From: Escherichia coli
Lineage (GTDB): Bacteria > Pseudomonadota > Gammaproteobacteria > Enterobacterales > Enterobacteriaceae
Assembly: GCF_024298765.1 (NCBI RefSeq)
Contig: NZ_CP101210.1
Length of the DNA stretch: 64,000 bases
Strand: one strand, 5' to 3'
The notes beneath the pieces are model-generated. The model saw only the letters and a list, made by a program, of their open reading frames with translations. It was not told the origin of the DNA and made no database searches. The position numbers were made by a program, and so were the translations under genes. Each line of letters opens with the position of its first letter. Position 1 is the first letter of the stretch. Shown piece by piece: positions 2,770-42,901 of the stretch.

Positions 2770-3557
2770 TGCTGGCAGCCAGGGCACCAGTAAAACGGGC
2801 GAGATGACAGCGTGGTTTTCTCAATGATGCCGCCACAGCGTTCGCACAGTTCGCCATCACGATGAAAAACCTTAAAGCGAAACAGCGCCCCATGATGCTT
2901 ATTCTCATCCACCTGCCCCCGCGTAGCGTAGGAAAATCGAGGAATATCCAGTAACGCGTGTGCGAGTGCATCCAGTTGCGCCGCATTGAGATCTTTCGCT
3001 TTATGATTTCCAGTCAACCCAACCTGCCAGAGGATCTCCACCCGCAAATAATTGCCAAGCCCAGCCAGAAACGCCTGATCGAGCAGTAATCCAGCAAACT
3101 GACGGTTACGAAAGCGCGGCGACAATAACCGTTCCTTTACCACCTCCGGCGTCAGATTCGGATCCAGCACATCGGGGCCGACTCGTTGTAAAAACGGATG
3201 CGTGATCAGTTGTTCCGGCGTCAACATCTCAATATCCGAGGCGCTATAAAGCAGAATAGTTTTGTCAACCGTTTGCAGTTTTACCCGCAATACTCGCATA
3301 GTCTGCGGCTCTTCGCCGGTATCAACCACGCGCCAGACGCCGTAAAGCTGATTATGGCTGTAGAGCGTTAAGTCGTTGGAAAAATGAGTTAACAACGCCT
3401 TACCACGCGTTTCCACATGGGTAACGTGTTGACCGATAAGTTGTGATTGATAAGGTTTTAACTGCGGGAAGGCAAACCAGACATCAGTTAGTGGTTTGCC
3501 TTTGATCGCCGCCTCCAGGTTATCCGCTGCACGGCGGATCTCCGGGCCTTCAGGCAT
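2766..3557 (-). CDS. nei: endonuclease VIII (Fpg/Nei family DNA glycosylase)
   Basis: 263 aa, N-terminal MPEGPEIRR and C-terminal zinc-finger CxxC...CxxC. Confidence 0.9.
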
Positions 3558-3592
3558 GGTGATATCCTTTTTTCATTCTTTATTAAACGGGG

Positions 3593-4327
3593 TTATGCTG
3601 CGACAACAATCCCCTTTTCGGCAAATGTAGAGCGTAGTCGGCGGGCGAATGCCAGTGCGTGCTCGCCGTCGCCATGCAGGCAGACCGTTTGCGCCGTGAC
3701 CGTTGCCCATTCGCCGGTGATGCTTTTGACTCTGCCGTGTTGCACCATCTCCAGCGTTTGCGCCAGCGCCTGTTCTTCGTTTTCAATCAACGCGCCTGGC
3801 TGGCTTCGCGGCACCAGCGAACCGTCTGCCTGATAACCGCGATCGGCAAACACTTCCTCGCGCGTTGTCAGGCCATATTGCTTGCCTGCACGAATCAGCT
3901 CGCTTCCTGCCAGCCCGACGAGAATCAATGCCGGATCGCAAGCGTATACCGCTCTGGCGATGGCGTCTGCCAGTTGTGCCTCTTTCGCTGCCTGGTTGTA
4001 TAACATGCCGTGAGGTTTGACATGACGCATAACACCGCCTTGCGCACGGGCAATCGTTGCCAGCGCGCCAATTTGATACAGCGTCTGGGCGTAAACGGTT
4101 TCTGGCGGCAGCTGCATGACGCTGCGCCCAAAATTTTCCCTGTCGGGAAAACTCGGGTGAGCGCCAATCGCAACACCATTTTTTATTGCTTCACGCACGC
4201 AAGCCTGCATGGTTTGCGCATCGCCTGCATGAAATCCACAGGCAATATTGGCAGAGGAAACCAGCGTTAATAGCTCTGCGTCGCTGGCATAGCCTTCGCC
4301 CAGATCGGCGTTCAGGTCAATTTTCAT
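3593..4327 (-). CDS. pxpA: 5-oxoprolinase subunit A (LamB/YcsF family)
   Basis: 244 aa, [13 protein letters not shown]-terminus; in pxpB-pxpC-pxpA cluster. Confidence 0.85.
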
Positions 4328-6752: not shown

Positions 6753-8417
<1,665 letters not shown>

Positions 8418-34982: not shown

Positions 34983-37181
34983 ATGTCAAAATTAAAAATT
35001 GCGGTTAGTGATTCTTGCCCGGACTGTTTTACCACGCAGCGAGAATGTATCTATATTAATGAAAACAGTAATATCGATGTGGCGGCAATAGTTTTATCGC
35101 TCAACGATGTTACACGCGGAAAACTCGATGAAATCGATGCCACGGGTTATGGCATCCCGGTATTTATTGCTACTGAAAATCAAGAACGTGTACCCGCAGA
35201 GTATTTGCCCCGTATTTCGGGTGTCTTTGAGAATTGCGAATCGCGACGAGAATTTTATGGTCGTCAGTTAGAAACCGCAGCCAGCCATTATGAAACGCAA
35301 CTGCGCCCGCCCTTCTTCCGCGCACTGGTCGATTATGTCAATCAGGGTAACAGCGCGTTTGATTGCCCCGGTCATCAGGGCGGCGAATTTTTCCGTCGCC
35401 ATCCCGCGGGGAATCAGTTTGTGGAATACTTTGGTGAGGCGCTGTTCCGTGCTGACTTGTGCAACGCCGACGTAGCGATGGGCGATCTGCTGATTCACGA
35501 AGGCGCGCCATGCATTGCACAGCAACATGCGGCAAAAGTGTTTAATGCCGATAAAACATACTTCGTTTTAAATGGCACTTCATCTTCTAACAAAGTGGTT
35601 TTAAACGCCCTGCTGACACCGGGTGATCTGGTGCTGTTTGACCGCAATAACCACAAATCTAACCACCACGGAGCGTTGCTACAGGCTGGCGCGACACCGG
35701 TTTATCTGGAAACCGCACGTAACCCGTATGGTTTTATCGGTGGTATTGACGCTCACTGTTTTGAAGAAAGTTACCTGCGTGAACTGATCGCGGAATTCGC
35801 ACCGCAGCGGGCAAAAGAGGCTCGTCCTTTCCGCCTCGCCGTTATTCAGCTAGGCACTTACGACGGTACGATTTATAACGCCCGTCAGGTGGTGGATAAA
35901 ATTGGTCATCTGTGTGACTACATCCTCTTTGACTCCGCATGGGTCGGCTATGAGCAGTTTATCCCGATGATGGCGGACTGTTCACCACTGTTGCTGGATC
36001 TTAATGAGAACGATCCGGGTATTCTGGTTACGCAATCTGTGCATAAACAGCAGGCTGGTTTTTCTCAGACTTCACAAATCCATAAAAAAGACAGCCATAT
36101 CAAAGGGCAACAGCGTTATGTACCGCACAAACGCATGAACAACGCCTTTATGATGCATGCCTCCACCAGCCCGTTCTATCCGCTGTTTGCCGCACTGGAT
36201 ATCAACGCCAAAATGCATGAAGGTGTCAGCGGTCGTAATATGTGGATGGATTGTGTGGTAAATGGCATTAATGCCCGCAAACTGATCCTCGATAACTGTC
36301 AGCATATTCGTCCATTCGTACCTGAACTGGTGGATGGTAAACCCTGGCAGTCGTATGAAACGGCGCAAATTGCGGTTGATCTGCGCTTCTTCCAGTTTGT
36401 ACCAGGTGAGCACTGGCATTCTTTTGAAGGCTATGCAGAGAATCAATACTTTGTCGATCCGTGCAAACTGTTGCTGACAACCCCAGGTATTGATGCACGT
36501 AACGGCGAATATGAAGCGTTCGGTGTACCCGCGACGATTCTTGCTAACTTCCTGCGCGAAAATGGCGTAGTGCCGGAAAAATGCGATCTTAACTCCATCC
36601 TCTTTCTGCTGACTCCGGCAGAAGATATGGCCAAACTTCAGCAACTTGTTGCTCTGCTGGTACGCTTCGAAAAACTGCTTGAGTCCGACGCGCCATTATC
36701 AGAAGTACTGCCTTCCATCTACAAACAGCATGAAGAGCGCTACACCGGTTATACCCTGCGTCAGTTGTGTCAGGAAATGCATGATTTGTATGCCCGTCAC
36801 AACGTGAAACAACTGCAAAAAGAGATGTTCCGTAAGGAACACTTCCCACGCGTAAGCATGAATCCACAAGAAGCCAACTACGCCTATTTACGCGGTGAAG
36901 TGGAGCTGGTTCGTCTGCCGGATGCAGAAGGCCGTATCGCTGCCGAAGGTGCGCTTCCTTATCCTCCGGGTGTGCTGTGTGTTGTTCCGGGTGAAATCTG
37001 GGGTGGTGCTGTTCTGCGTTACTTCAGCGCTCTGGAAGAAGGGATCAACCTGCTGCCAGGTTTTGCACCAGAGCTGCAGGGTGTCTATATCGAAGAACAT
37101 GATGGTCGTAAGCAAGTTTGGTGCTATGTCATCAAGCCTCGTGATGCGCAAAGCACCCTGTTGAAAGGGGAAAAATTATGA
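34983..37181 (+). CDS. speF: inducible ornithine decarboxylase
   Basis: 732 aa from MSKLKIAVSDSCPD within ORF 34905..37181. Confidence 0.95.
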   Translation: MSKLKIAVSDSCPDCFTTQRECIYINENSNIDVAAIVLSLNDVTRGKLDEIDATGYGIPVFIATENQERVPAEYLPRISGVFENCESRREFYGRQLETAASHYETQLRPPFFRALVDYVNQGNSAFDCPGHQGGEFFRRHPAGNQFVEYFGEALFRADLCNADVAMGDLLIHEGAPCIAQQHAAKVFNADKTYFVLNGTSSSNKVVLNALLTPGDLVLFDRNNHKSNHHGALLQAGATPVYLETARNPYGFIGGIDAHCFEESYLRELIAEFAPQRAKEARPFRLAVIQLGTYDGTIYNARQVVDKIGHLCDYILFDSAWVGYEQFIPMMADCSPLLLDLNENDPGILVTQSVHKQQAGFSQTSQIHKKDSHIKGQQRYVPHKRMNNAFMMHASTSPFYPLFAALDINAKMHEGVSGRNMWMDCVVNGINARKLILDNCQHIRPFVPELVDGKPWQSYETAQIAVDLRFFQFVPGEHWHSFEGYAENQYFVDPCKLLLTTPGIDARNGEYEAFGVPATILANFLRENGVVPEKCDLNSILFLLTPAEDMAKLQQLVALLVRFEKLLESDAPLSEVLPSIYKQHEERYTGYTLRQLCQEMHDLYARHNVKQLQKEMFRKEHFPRVSMNPQEANYAYLRGEVELVRLPDAEGRIAAEGALPYPPGVLCVVPGEIWGGAVLRYFSALEEGINLLPGFAPELQGVYIEEHDGRKQVWCYVIKPRDAQSTLLKGEKL

Positions 37182-38497
37182 GTCAGGCTAAATCGAATAA
37201 GATGGGCGTCGTTCAGTTAACCATACTGACGATGGTCAACATGATGGGCTCCGGTATCATCATGCTGCCGACAAAGCTTGCCGAAGTTGGGACAATCTCA
37301 ATTATCTCCTGGCTGGTGACAGCCGTAGGCTCAATGGCACTGGCATGGGCATTCGCAAAATGCGGTATGTTCAGCCGTAAATCAGGCGGTATGGGCGGTT
37401 ATGCGGAGTATGCTTTCGGTAAATCCGGGAACTTTATGGCGAACTACACCTACGGTGTCTCGCTGCTGATTGCTAACGTCGCGATTGCTATTTCGGCGGT
37501 TGGTTACGGCACCGAACTGCTCGGCGCGAGTTTGTCGCCAGTGCAGATTGGTCTTGCGACCATCGGAGTGCTGTGGATTTGTACCGTGGCTAACTTTGGT
37601 GGTGCGCGCATTACCGGGCAAATCAGTAGCATTACTGTGTGGGGGGTCATTATTCCGGTCGTCGGTCTGTGCATTATCGGCTGGTTCTGGTTTAGCCCGA
37701 CGCTATACGCTAACTCATGGAACCCGCACCATGTGCCGTTCTTTAGCGCTGTAGGTTCTTCCATCGCCATGACGTTGTGGGCTTTCCTCGGTCTGGAGTC
37801 AGCCTGTGCCAACGCCGAAGTAGTTGAAAACCCGGAACGTAACGTGCCGATTGCAGTTCTTGGCGGTACTTTAGGTGCGGCGGTGATTTATATCGTCTCC
37901 ACCAACGTGATTGCAGGGATAGTGCCTAATATGGAGCTGGCAAATTCAACGGCACCATTTGGCCTGACTTTCGCACAGATGTTCACGCCAGAAGTGGGTA
38001 AAGTCATTATGGCGCTGATGGTGATGTCCTGCTGCGGTTCACTGCTTGGCTGGCAGTTCACCATTGCCCAGGTGTTTAAATCTTCATCTGATGAAGGCTA
38101 CTTCCCTAAAATTTTCTCCCGTGTAACCAAAGTGGATGCACCGGTTCAGGGAATGTTGACCATTGTGATTATTCAGAGTGGATTGGCACTGATGACCATT
38201 AGCCCGTCACTGAACAGCCAGTTCAACGTGCTGGTTAACCTGGCCGTGGTGACCAATATCATTCCGTATATTCTGTCGATGGCAGCATTAGTCATTATTC
38301 AGCAGGTCGCTAATGTGCCACCATCAAAAGCGAAAGTAGCAAACTTTGTTGCCTTTGTTGGTGCGATGTACAGTTTCTATGCGCTGTACTCATCCGGGGA
38401 AGAAGCCATGCTGTACGGTTCCATCGTGACCTTCCTTGGTTGGACACTGTATGGTCTGGTCTCACCACGCTTTGAACTGAAAAATAAACACGGTTAA
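37178..38497 (+). CDS. potE: putrescine-ornithine antiporter
   Basis: 439 aa APC-family transporter, start overlaps speF stop. Confidence 0.95.
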   Translation: MSQAKSNKMGVVQLTILTMVNMMGSGIIMLPTKLAEVGTISIISWLVTAVGSMALAWAFAKCGMFSRKSGGMGGYAEYAFGKSGNFMANYTYGVSLLIANVAIAISAVGYGTELLGASLSPVQIGLATIGVLWICTVANFGGARITGQISSITVWGVIIPVVGLCIIGWFWFSPTLYANSWNPHHVPFFSAVGSSIAMTLWAFLGLESACANAEVVENPERNVPIAVLGGTLGAAVIYIVSTNVIAGIVPNMELANSTAPFGLTFAQMFTPEVGKVIMALMVMSCCGSLLGWQFTIAQVFKSSSDEGYFPKIFSRVTKVDAPVQGMLTIVIIQSGLALMTISPSLNSQFNVLVNLAVVTNIIPYILSMAALVIIQQVANVPPSKAKVANFVAFVGAMYSFYALYSSGEEAMLYGSIVTFLGWTLYGLVSPRFELKNKHG

Positions 38498-38509: not shown

Positions 38510-38543
38510 AAAAAGGGCGATTGAATGGTCGCCCTTTCTGTTT
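38510..38543. terminator. rho-independent terminator after potE
   Basis: aaaaagggcgattgaatggtcgccctttctgttt. Confidence 0.6.
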
Positions 38544-38574: not shown

Positions 38575-38723
38575 CCGGCAGGTGTAGGATCCAAACGCGG
38601 TCGGACACAGCAACTATTTGCGTAATTATATGAGGCATTTGCGACAAAAACTGGAACAGGATCTCGCCCGCCCCGCCATTTCATTACTGAAACCAGTATT
38701 GGGTATCGGTTTATGCTTTGAAA
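38575..38723 (+). pseudogene. duplicated 3' end of kdpE (about 150 bp fragment; resembles what I recall as ybfI in K-12)
   Basis: Strong nucleotide similarity to 34240-34390 including the stop codon context. Confidence 0.7.
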
Positions 38724-38844
38724 AAAGTGGCATTGTATGGATAAAGTCATTTTTTATTCACATATAAGGAACTTAATATTTAAAAAATGTCCCATACAAT
38801 GCCTCATCATAAATGACACCGTAGCATACAAGGAGCAAGTAGCG

Positions 38845-39239
38845 ATGCGTGATTGGACACAACGCCCTGAATTCGCAAGCGTGCGGGCTTTACCCATCGC
38901 CGATGATGTCGCAGGGGGAATTTTCTTAATGGTGGCGATCTTGGGGAAGATACTGGCTGCGTTTATTATTTTGCGCCAGATACGCTGATTTGGGAAAGTC
39001 TGGAGGTTGGATATTCTGAGTTTCTTCAGTGGGCATTATCCGGTGATTTAGATACCTTCAATGAAAATGTACGCTGGCCGCAATGGCAAGAAGACGTAAT
39101 AAAATTATCGGCAACGGAAGCCTTCACTTTCTACCCTTTCTTATGGGTACAAAGTGAAGAAGCAAGAACAAGAAAAGTTATTTCGCTTACTGAACTCTGG
39201 GAAATGCAGTATCAAATGAAAGAAACATTCACGCAATAA
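38845..39239 (+). pseudogene. frameshifted ORF (ybfG-like)
   Basis: Two consecutive frames (MRDWTQRPEFASVRALPIADD... then ...WESLEVGYSEFLQWALSGDLDTF...) with no intact long ORF. Confidence 0.45.
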
Positions 39240-39279
39240 GACATGTTCAGGTCCGGGTTTCATTCCTGGACTCGCTATT

Positions 39280-39774
39280 TTAATGTGTATTTATCGCTTT
39301 CAATTCTTGCTGGCAATTTTCTGACTGGCAGCGTCGCAACTCAATAATCCCGACATGCATCATCGAGCCAATAAAGCCGCTTTCGCTGACATAATCCTCA
39401 TTAACTATCGGTCGAGTGCCGGGCTTGCCCTGGCAAACCTGCATAAAAAATGAGGTGTAGCATTGCCAACCAGGATTTAAACCGGCCTTTTCTTGTGCTG
39501 ACATATCGTGAAGATAAGTAAGTTCTTTTTCGTTCCCGCCTGACAACTGCCAGCGGCGGGTATTATCAGGTAAGTTATCGCCACGGCAATTTGTCTTACA
39601 CCGGGAAAGCGCAATATTTACCGCAATGCTCCCCGTTAATCCTCTGGTTTTATCTTTAGGGGTCAGTAACCAGTCACCAGCTAATGATGATTGTTCAGGT
39701 TGGGCGCATGCTGTCAGCAGTAGTGTGGCGGTAATTAATGTCACTCTGACGACCAGACTCCTTTTGGTCTTCAT
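39280..39774 (-). CDS. ybfP: lipoprotein
   Basis: 164 aa from MKTKRSLVVRVTLITATLLLTAC (lipobox LTAC) within ORF 39280..39825. Confidence 0.75.
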   Translation of the reverse strand: MKTKRSLVVRVTLITATLLLTACAQPEQSSLAGDWLLTPKDKTRGLTGSIAVNIALSRCKTNCRGDNLPDNTRRWQLSGGNEKELTYLHDMSAQEKAGLNPGWQCYTSFFMQVCQGKPGTRPIVNEDYVSESGFIGSMMHVGIIELRRCQSENCQQELKAINTH

Positions 39775-39825
39775 TTTGAATTCCCTTGAGCTATTCAGTT
39801 TGTTGGCAAAGTGCTCGTTGTTCAT

Positions 39826-39990: not shown

Positions 39991-40645
39991 ACCAGCCGCG
40001 CCCTAACAGGCGCACACGATCTGACATTTGCATCCAACTTCGTTACTTACGGCCCGTAAACGGGCTGCCCGGATAGGGAATCGATAACTGCTCTCCCATT
40101 TTATCCTCTTCAAGCTGGTGCTTTATGTAATCCTGTATCTTCGCCGTGTTCTTACCCACCGTATCGACGTAGTACCCTCTGCACCAGAACTCTCTGTTCC
40201 TGTATTTGAATTTCAAATCACCAAACTGCTCGTAAAGCATCAGACTGCTTTTCCCTTTCAGATATCCCATAAAGCCGGATACACTCATTTTGGGCGGGAT
40301 CTCCACAAGCATATGGATATGATCTGCACAGCATTCAGCTTCAAGAATCCGTACGCTTTTCCACTCACACAGCTTTCTCAAAATACTGCCTATTGCTCTA
40401 CGCTTCTCTCTGTAGAACACTTGTCTTCGGTATTTTGGCGCAAAAACTATGTGATATTTACAGTTCCATCGGGTGTGCGCTAAGCTCTTTTCGTTCCCCA
40501 TTGGGACCCCCTTTTGATTTCTTGTTTGACACTTGCAGTTGCCAGACCGCAAGGTGTTTTAACAAATCAAAAGGGGTTTTAATAACTGGCTCAAAGCTGA
40601 AAGCTTTCCGGAACCCCCAGCCTAGCTGGGGGTTTTCTGTGCACA
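39990..40645 (-). mobile_element. IS200-family insertion sequence (ends approximate)
   Basis: Contains IS200 tnpA; upstream perfect hairpin aacccccagcctagctgggggtt typical of the IS200 5' region; ends not determined precisely. Confidence 0.65.
40043..40501 (-). CDS. tnpA: IS200 transposase TnpA (HUH/Y1 family)
   Basis: 152 aa from MGNEKSLAHTRWNCKYHIVFAPKYRR..., HIHMLVEIPP HUH motif and ...YYVDTVG... tyrosine region. Confidence 0.9.
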   Translation of the reverse strand: MGNEKSLAHTRWNCKYHIVFAPKYRRQVFYREKRRAIGSILRKLCEWKSVRILEAECCADHIHMLVEIPPKMSVSGFMGYLKGKSSLMLYEQFGDLKFKYRNREFWCRGYYVDTVGKNTAKIQDYIKHQLEEDKMGEQLSIPYPGSPFTGRK

Positions 40646-40649
40646 AAAA

Positions 40650-40683
40650 AGGGCGATCTTCCGACCGCCCTTTTTCTTATTAA
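40650..40683. terminator. rho-independent terminator of pgm
   Basis: aaaaagggcgatcttccgaccgccctttttctt. Confidence 0.6.
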
Positions 40684-40689
40684 ATGTGT

Positions 40690-42330
40690 TTACGCGTTTT
40701 TCAGAACTTCGCTAACAATCTCAACCGCTTCTTTCTCAATTTGCTTGCGATGTTCTTCCCCGAGGAAGCTTTCGCAATAAATCTTGTACGCGTCTTCCGT
40801 GCCTGACGGACGCGCGGCGAACCAGCCGTTGTCAGTCATCACTTTCAGACCGCCAATAGAAGCACCGTTGCCCGGAGCAGCAGTCAGGCGTGCGGTGATC
40901 GGGTCACCTGCCAGGGTGCTGGCGCTCACCATTTCCGGAGACAGTTTAGACAGCGCCGCTTTTTGTGCGGAAGTCGCGGCTGCCTGCAAACGGTTGTAGC
41001 TCGGCGCACCAAAGCGTTTTGCCAGTTCGTTGTAGTGTTCCTGCGGATTCTTACCGGTAACAGCGGTGATTTCCGCCGCCAGCAGACACATAATGATGCC
41101 GTCTTTATCGGTGGACCACGGCGTGCCGTCGAAACGCAGGAAGGAAGCCCCTGCGCTCTCTTCGCCGCCAAAGCCGAAGCTGCCGTCGAACAGACCATCA
41201 ACAAACCATTTGAAACCTACCGGGACTTCTACCAGCTTACGGCCCAAGTCATTGACCACACGGTCGATCATCGCAGATGAAACCAGCGTTTTACCGACAG
41301 CAACATCTTTGCCCCACTGCGGACGGTGCTGGAACAGGTAGTTGATCGCCACCGCCAGGTAGTGGTTCGGATTCATCAAACCTGCCGGAGTGACGATACC
41401 GTGACGGTCATAATCCGGGTCGTTAGCAAACGCCAGATCGAACTTATCACGCAGTGCCAGCAGGCCCGCCATCGCACACTCGGAGGAGCAGTCCATACGG
41501 ATCGCACCGTCTTTATCTAGGTGCATAAAGCGGAAGGTTTGATCGACCTGATCGTTAACGATGGTCAGGTTGAGGTTGTAATACTCGCCAATACGCTTCC
41601 AGTATTCGATACCAGAACCGCCCAGCGGATCGACACCCAGCGTCAGGCCCGCTTTCTGAATCGCTGCCATATCAACGATATCGGCCAGCCCTTCCACGAA
41701 CGGCTGCACCAGATCCTGCTCTTTCACATGACCGGATGCCATCGCTTCGTCGAGGGAGATACGCTTCACGCCTTTCAGGCCATCAGCCATCAGTGCGTTG
41801 GCCCTGTCTTCCACCACTTTAGTGACGTTGGTATCAGCCGGGCCACCATTTGGCGGATTGTACTTGATACCACCATCTTCCGGCGGGTTATGAGACGGTG
41901 TAATCACGATACCGTCTGCCAGCGGGCCACCTTTTTTATTGTGAACCAGAATGGCATTGGAAATGGCAGGTGTCGGAGTGAAGCCATTGTTTTCCTGCAC
42001 AATGATATCAACACCGTTCGCTGCCAGCACTTCCAGTACGGAAATGAACGCAGGCTCGGACAGGGCGTGAGTATCTTTACCCACATAGCAAGGGCCAGTG
42101 ATGCCGTTTTTCGCACGTTCTTCAGCAATTGCCTGAGCGATCGCCAGAATGTGCGGCTCGTTAAAGCTGTGGCGCGCTGCACTGCCACGGTGACCGGAAG
42201 TACCGAATTTCACCGCGTGCTCCGCATTCCCTGCTTCTGGTTTCAGTACATAATATTGCGCCGTCAGTTGGGCGACGTTAATCAAATCACTCTGTTGTGC
42301 AGGTTGGCCTGCACGATTGTGGATTGCCAT
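40690..42330 (-). CDS. pgm: phosphoglucomutase
   Basis: 546 aa from [16 protein letters not shown] within ORF 40690..42381; TSGHRG-type phosphoserine motif present. Confidence 0.95.
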
Positions 42331-42355
42331 TGCTTTGTCCTTTGTCTGCAACGTT

Positions 42356-42901
42356 TTAGATAGTTCCGCAAACCTTCTCAATCAATTCCGCCGGGAATTG
42401 CATCGACTGCATGATGTGTTCGATCATGCTGCATTTACGGCCGGTGTTGGTGTTGGTGATCACCCAATACGGCGTGCCAGGCACATGTTTCGGCTTGGTC
42501 TGATTACCATTTTTCAGCAGCGTTTGTTCATCTGCCGCAAAGTAAACGCGTGTACGACCGTGCAACGATTCCGTTGCCTCGGCAAACGCCTGGGCGTCAA
42601 GAGAATATAGTGTAGACAACAGCAGCATAAAGCGATTGACCGCTCGCTTTTGCTCTGCGTATTCATCCGAAAGCAGAAGTTCACGCATTGCGCGAACCTT
42701 GTCTTTAATCGTTTTGACCGGCTTCGCTTCGACGATAGCAGGTGACGCAACGCGAACCTCTTTCGTCACCGGAGCAGCAGGCTGTGATGCGGCGGAAAAT
42801 TTCAACATACGCCGTAAAATGTCGGATGCGCTCTCGCCGATATGCTTAGTGTGGCTGGCAATATAGCTGTAGAGTTCATCATCAACTTCAATCGTTTTCA
42901 T
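42356..42901 (-). CDS. seqA: replication initiation negative modulator SeqA
   Basis: 181 aa from [17 protein letters not shown] within ORF 42356..43036. Confidence 0.95.

Follow-up and report, generated by a model that had tools for sequence, protein, structure and literature searches.

Remnant of the DUF2625 gene ybfG in an accessory islet downstream of potE in Escherichia coli

Introduction

In Escherichia coli K-12, ybfG (b0690/b0691, annotated in RefSeq as 'DUF2625 domain-containing protein, internal stop') is non-functional, and its knock-out has served as a neutral pseudogene control (doi 10.1101/2022.09.01.506172). A literature search for ybfG returned descriptions of it only in that capacity. 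Here we describe its counterpart at positions 38845–39239 of a 64,000-nucleotide stretch of an E. coli chromosome (assembly GCF_024298765.1, contig NZ_CP101210.1), hereafter called the window. This element is almost certainly a broken remnant of ybfG, a single gene of the DUF2625 family (PF10946) that has 216 codons when intact. That ybfG is a pseudogene is already known: it is established in K-12, and RefSeq labels the identical locus of strain 104 (a chicken isolate, NZ_CP029164.1) as a 'DUF2625 family protein; frameshifted' pseudogene. Strain 104 is 100% identical to the window across the 801-bp query, placed across the ybfG remnant, that was used to search for relatives.

The K-12 copy is found at the same place, downstream of potE with ybfI' on one side and ybfP on the other, and shares about 95% DNA identity with the copy in the window. 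The lesions differ. K-12 carries a TGG to TAG change at codon 70 together with G109V in a full-length 651-bp gene, whereas the window copy has lost 252 bp and 4 bp and has kept G109. As the two sets of lesions are not the same, ybfG has been inactivated at least twice independently. In the extracted K-12 locus (3344–3994), G109V replaces a family-invariant glycine, which adds a second mark of decay to that copy.

Among the proteins that the predicted fold of intact YbfG resembles are the Tdi proteins, which neutralise type VI secretion Ntox15 DNase effectors by inserting into the nuclease core and which are often 'orphans' without a toxin (PMC10470768). Tdi proteins have cognate Ntox15 toxins; the likeness of YbfG to them concerns the ancestral gene, known from its predicted fold, and not the dead remnant.

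Results

The remnant is one gene read in two frames

The features of the remnant, all on the plus strand, are as follows.

38829–38836, plus: retained ribosome-binding site (AAGGAGCA), read from the sequence and the same in intact alleles.
38845–39239, plus: ybfG remnant, start codon through stop codon; a pseudogene that lacks two segments of the 651-bp intact allele.
38852/38853, plus: junction of the 252-bp in-frame deletion; codons 3/4–87 of 216 are lost.
About 38921–38924, plus: site of the 4-bp deletion, a true frameshift at codon 111/112.
38986–38988, plus: first stop (TGA) of the shifted frame; it closes a 47-codon open reading frame (ORF) at 38845–38988 in which the 21 C-terminal residues are out of frame.
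38925–39236, plus: C-terminal part of ybfG in the +2 frame, matching codons 113–216 of the intact gene and with no usable start of its own.

The interval 38845–39241 was translated in the three forward frames. The ATG at 38845, with a strong Shine-Dalgarno sequence (AAGGAG) 8 nt to its 5' side, is the ybfG start and the TAA at 39237–39239 its stop, so the bounds given in the first-pass annotation of this DNA are exact. Frame 1 (38845–38988) reads MRDWTQRPEFASVRALPIADDVAGGIF and then, out of frame, FLMVAILGKILAAFIILRQIR up to the stop at 38986–38988. Frame 3 reads (G)GNFLNGGDLGEDTGCVYYFAPDTL...KETFTQ*, its translation being also given as GGNFLNGGDLGEDTGCVYYFAPDTLIWESLEVGYSEFLQW...KETFTQ, and ends at 39237–39239. 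When the two frames were joined they matched Pfam DUF2625 at E = 2e-43 over profile positions 83–206 of 207, far beyond chance, in agreement with the earlier proposal that two adjacent frames together form one frameshifted gene. The frame-3 part alone matched the same family at E = 1.9e-36 (positions 114–206), and the 47-residue frame-1 ORF alone matched no Pfam family. For the intact ybfG allele the DUF2625 match reaches E = 8e-87 and NCBIfam NF008494 (YbfG) spans the protein from end to end; the profile match exceeds the curated cut-off for membership of DUF2625 / NF008494. The window does not hold a full-length, uninterrupted DUF2625 coding sequence (about 207 profile positions), only positions 83–206 divided between two frames. 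The window copy is thus a pseudogene derived from a DUF2625 member and not a functional member.

We considered whether the two frames are instead two naturally separate small genes, an outcome that the first-pass annotation had named as fatal to its reading. Frame 1 can indeed be drawn by itself, either as an 83-residue mechanical ORF (38737–38988) or as the 47-residue ORF from the ATG at 38845, but the latter alone has no family match. In the downstream frame no ATG, GTG or TTG occurs before the final 10 codons, and the frame does not appear in the ORF list; with no start codon to use, it cannot stand as a gene by itself. In intact alleles and in all full-length homologues the gene is single and continuous. 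A search of a large protein collection with the intact allele returned 610 proteins at E ≤ 1e-5. The full-length homologues among them are single proteins of 203–229 residues, all with PF10946, and come from Kosakonia, Erwinia, Pantoea, Yersinia, Citrobacter, Dickeya, Klebsiella, Burkholderia, Flavobacterium, Hymenobacter and Pedobacter. Their identity is about 95% within E. coli and falls at once to about 55% in the next relatives, and no close full-length YbfG orthologue from outside E. coli was seen among the full-length matches. The intact-allele alignment, the missing start codon and the single-protein homologues together rule out separate genes, a reading to which we give practically no chance.

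Two deletions inactivate the window copy

Intact E. coli ybfG alleles are orthologous to the window copy, with 97% DNA identity over the retained parts, and encode the complete 216-residue YbfG protein (WP_001208814.1), which the window copy cannot. In the alignment to the intact allele, the larger deletion (84 codons; 252 mod 3 = 0) begins right after ATGCGTGA, that is, directly behind the second codon, and had been overlooked in the first pass. Its ends display no visible microhomology, and therefore no deletion mechanism can be proposed. At the smaller deletion, the intact allele reads GGGGGAATTTTTGCTCTTAATGG where the window reads GGGGGAATTTTCTTAATGG, and the bases lost are those bracketed in GGGGGAATTT[TTGC]TCTTAATGG. 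The frameshift had previously been placed near 38990. The real indel lies about 67 bp upstream of that point, and 38986–38988 is merely where the shifted frame meets its first stop. Position 38990 was rejected as the site of the frameshift: just after that stop, it holds an A-to-T substitution (N134I).

Of the 26 residues that are invariant across the family, 10 fall within the 252-bp deletion (S52, G55, G62, G63, D67, R72, G75, S76, G77 and R83). Because the 84 lost codons hold these residues, either lesion alone would be disabling. Two lineage-specific substitutions, N134I and Y158N, were found in addition; both are non-synonymous, none is synonymous, and Y158 is invariant in the DUF2625 family alignment. 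This agrees with decay of an already inactive gene, but with only two changes no statistical test is possible. The window copy thus carries disabling lesions where close relatives have an intact orthologue at this locus, and nothing was found that counts against its pseudogene status.

The double-deletion allele is shared by 71 genomes

Alleles were counted with short diagnostic probes, always out of 5426 complete E. coli genomes. The region ybfI'-ybfG is present in 1815–1858 of them, and potE in 5045. A 50-bp probe over the 252-bp junction matched the window allele in exactly 71 genomes. A second 50-bp probe, over the 4-bp deletion, matched at 99% or more in 71 genomes; its other 131 matches aligned with a 4-base gap and are thus without that deletion. 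The class with 99% or more identity to the 801-bp query also numbers 71 genomes. Among the matches listed, many carriers of the double deletion are from poultry, including APEC O78:H4 and APEC O2-211. The K-12 amber allele (TAG at codon 70) was counted in 365 genomes, many of them, among the matches listed, K-12 or other laboratory strains. Trp70 (TGG) occurs on two flanking haplotypes, in 132 and 1284 genomes, and the Trp70 alleles are annotated as intact in all three cases checked.

These counts bear directly on whether the frameshift could be a sequencing or assembly error that hides a gene intact in the living strain. Sequencing errors often take the form of a short indel beside a run of T (AATTTTT), which would favour such an artefact. 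However, the 4-bp and the 252-bp deletions both recur in 71 independently sequenced complete genomes, the four bases lost include G and C and leave homopolymer length unchanged, and the 252-bp deletion would inactivate the protein anyway. Since both lesions are common to 71 independent genomes, an error was ruled out and has, in our estimate, next to no probability. Because they occur together in exactly 71 of the 5426 genomes, the two junctions (38852|38853 and 38921–38924) provide clean lineage markers.

The remnant has no protein function

In the lineage of the window, a 252-bp in-frame deletion took 84 N-terminal codons, a 4-bp deletion shifted the frame, and two non-synonymous substitutions were added to these lesions. 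Given these two lesions and the substitutions, the remnant is without protein function. At most, the retained ribosome-binding site and ATG might direct the synthesis of a 47-residue peptide made up of 26 native and 21 hydrophobic out-of-frame residues.

Such a peptide could in principle have been co-opted as a new small membrane protein, with the out-of-frame tail FLMVAILGKILAAFIILRQIR as its membrane helix. The tail is strongly hydrophobic, the Shine-Dalgarno sequence and the ATG are intact, the upstream region is conserved, and weak promoter-like sites lie at 38718–38747 and 38773–38800. On the other hand, nothing points to expression or selection of the peptide, these promoter matches score only 9 of 12, and hydrophobic out-of-frame peptides readily arise by chance. 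Moreover, the allele is found in a single lineage, whose 71 genomes share at least 99% identity over the 801-bp query, so that conservation cannot be assessed. We regard co-option as very improbable, and the 47-codon ORF with its hydrophobic tail behind a Shine-Dalgarno sequence is probably accidental. The whole of 38845–39239 is an ordinary decayed accessory gene, and gene counts for this strain should include neither one nor two coding genes here.

Intact YbfG may have been an immunity protein

In order to consider what the gene encoded before its decay, intact YbfG was modelled confidently with AlphaFold2 from an alignment of 41 sequences (pLDDT 91.9, pTM 0.90). The predicted structure has a SUKH/Tdi-like alpha+beta fold. 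It is similar to Tdi1/Tdi2 (PDB 8g0k, 8fzz and 6itw), with 11–14% sequence identity, and the fold matches that come next, of the SUKH/SMI1-KNR4 kind, comprise Lin2918, YobK, BF1740, the SUKH domain of FBXO3, Knr4, Syd and RhsPI (Rhs immunity). A Foldseek search returned the same set of SUKH/Tdi-like structures. At the sequence level, SMI1_KNR4 matches were weak and below threshold, in 4 of the 41 family members. Pfam at the gathering threshold gave nothing besides DUF2625 for family members, and a search of solved structures with the family profile gave two weak matches only (best E = 0.028, 4jrf).

On this predicted fold, intact YbfG is plausibly an orphan SUKH/Tdi-like immunity protein. The ancestral protein would be cytoplasmic and would neutralise a delivered nuclease toxin, and the gene may have been kept as an 'orphan' without that toxin, hence dispensable and repeatedly lost. 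Such a role would explain why YbfG is dispensable, patchy and lost more than once. A more specific proposal is offered tentatively, namely that intact YbfG/DUF2625 represents an unrecognised orphan immunity family, structurally closest to Tdi, which protects E. coli when competitors deliver nuclease effectors of the Ntox15 type or related ones; we judge it rather unlikely as it stands.

Several points weigh against an immunity role or against the picture of an intact ancestral gene behind it. The case for immunity is one of predicted fold similarity, at 11–14% identity, and the SUKH fold also occurs in proteins that do not confer immunity (Knr4, FBXO3 and Syd). PADLOC defence models gave no match for YbfG (nor for YbfP), and none of the papers searched mentions DUF2625. 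There is no toxin gene or immunity array beside ybfG in E. coli, nor beside the homologues at the three loci inspected (Kosakonia, Yersinia and Dickeya). Intactness was checked in only 3 of the approximately 1416 Trp70 alleles.

At these loci, the Kosakonia homologue lies amid ordinary chromosomal genes, none of those nearby being a toxin, mobile-element or defence gene; the Dickeya homologue adjoins an IS3-type transposase; and the Yersinia homologue is found in a mobile island with CbtA/CbeA toxin-antitoxin, anti-restriction, IS110, Mrr and nuclease genes. An orphan gene would not be out of place in the SUKH/Tdi family, but being an orphan is no proof of membership. With the immunity proposal, the uncharacterised DUF2625 family gains a testable hypothesis, that of a Tdi/SUKH-like immunity protein. 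If the more specific proposal were true, the patchy presence of the gene and its at least two independent inactivations would record a fluctuating exposure to attackers, and the window copy would still be dead.

The remnant lies in a small accessory islet between potE and pgm

The neighbouring features of the window are listed below; strands are given for the islet and for the genes downstream of it.

30996–33713: kdpD.
33710–34387: kdpE.
Between kdpE and potE: speF.
37178–38497: potE.
38579–38721, plus: ybfI', a pseudogene fragment like the 3' end of kdpE (winged-helix domain), in the upstream part of the islet.
39280–39825, minus: ybfP, the final gene of the islet, a lipoprotein ORF that seems intact.
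40043–40552, minus: IS200C transposase.
40690–42381, minus: pgm.

The region after potE had been called a junkyard of gene fragments. This is broadly fair, with ybfI' being a kdpE-like 3' fragment, but the gene that follows the remnant, ybfP, has an intact annotation. A better description is that of a small accessory islet, found in about one third of E. coli genomes, in which ybfI', ybfG and ybfP are inserted in this order between the convergent genes potE and pgm; in K-12 it measures about 1.7 kb. About 3200 genomes are without the islet, with potE directly adjoining pgm, and most potE matches end at query position 622 (window position 38521). In JJ1886, O104:H4 2009EL-2071 and AR_0077 the islet is absent and the convergent pgm follows 55–56 bp after potE.

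In strain 104, RefSeq annotates a 'winged helix-turn-helix domain-containing protein; frameshifted; incomplete; missing N-terminus' 3' of potE and, after the ybfG pseudogene, a hypothetical protein (ybfP), the IS200C tnpA and then pgm. The RefSeq start of ybfP is an internal ATG, giving 495 bp annotated. YbfP matched no Pfam, NCBIfam or PADLOC family. The gene is uncharacterised, accessory, convergent with ybfG and apparently intact.

The fragment ybfI' is identical to the window's own kdpE 3' end (34244–34387) at 128 of 144 positions, and it matches NCBIfam KdpE at positions 192–216 (E = 1e-4). Judged from the sequence, it has the appearance of an old duplicate of the 3' end of kdpE, with speF-potE bracketed by the two copies. 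It lies about 4 kb downstream of the kdpE 3' end, across speF-potE, starts directly 3' of a REP-like sequence (GCCGCATCCGGCAG) and has a 1-bp deletion relative to K-12 ybfI.

A different arrangement was observed in E. coli N3 (NZ_CP031609.1, extracted locus 7467–8307), where a kdpE annotated as frameshifted is followed by 164 bp of REP sequence and then by pgm. This genome is without speFL-speF-potE and without the entire islet. The 3' end of its kdpE bears ybfI-type variants, which points to loss of the intervening DNA through recombination of kdpE with ybfI'.

A copy of one and the same hairpin terminator (AAAAAAGGGCGA...TCGCCCTTTTT) stands on either side of the islet, at 38510–38539 and at about 40655–40690. 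The islet-free genomes JJ1886, O104:H4 and AR_0077 have a single hairpin terminator, common to the convergent potE and pgm. The presence of two flanking copies, as opposed to one in islet-free genomes, suggests that the islet was gained or lost through an event at the flanking hairpin.
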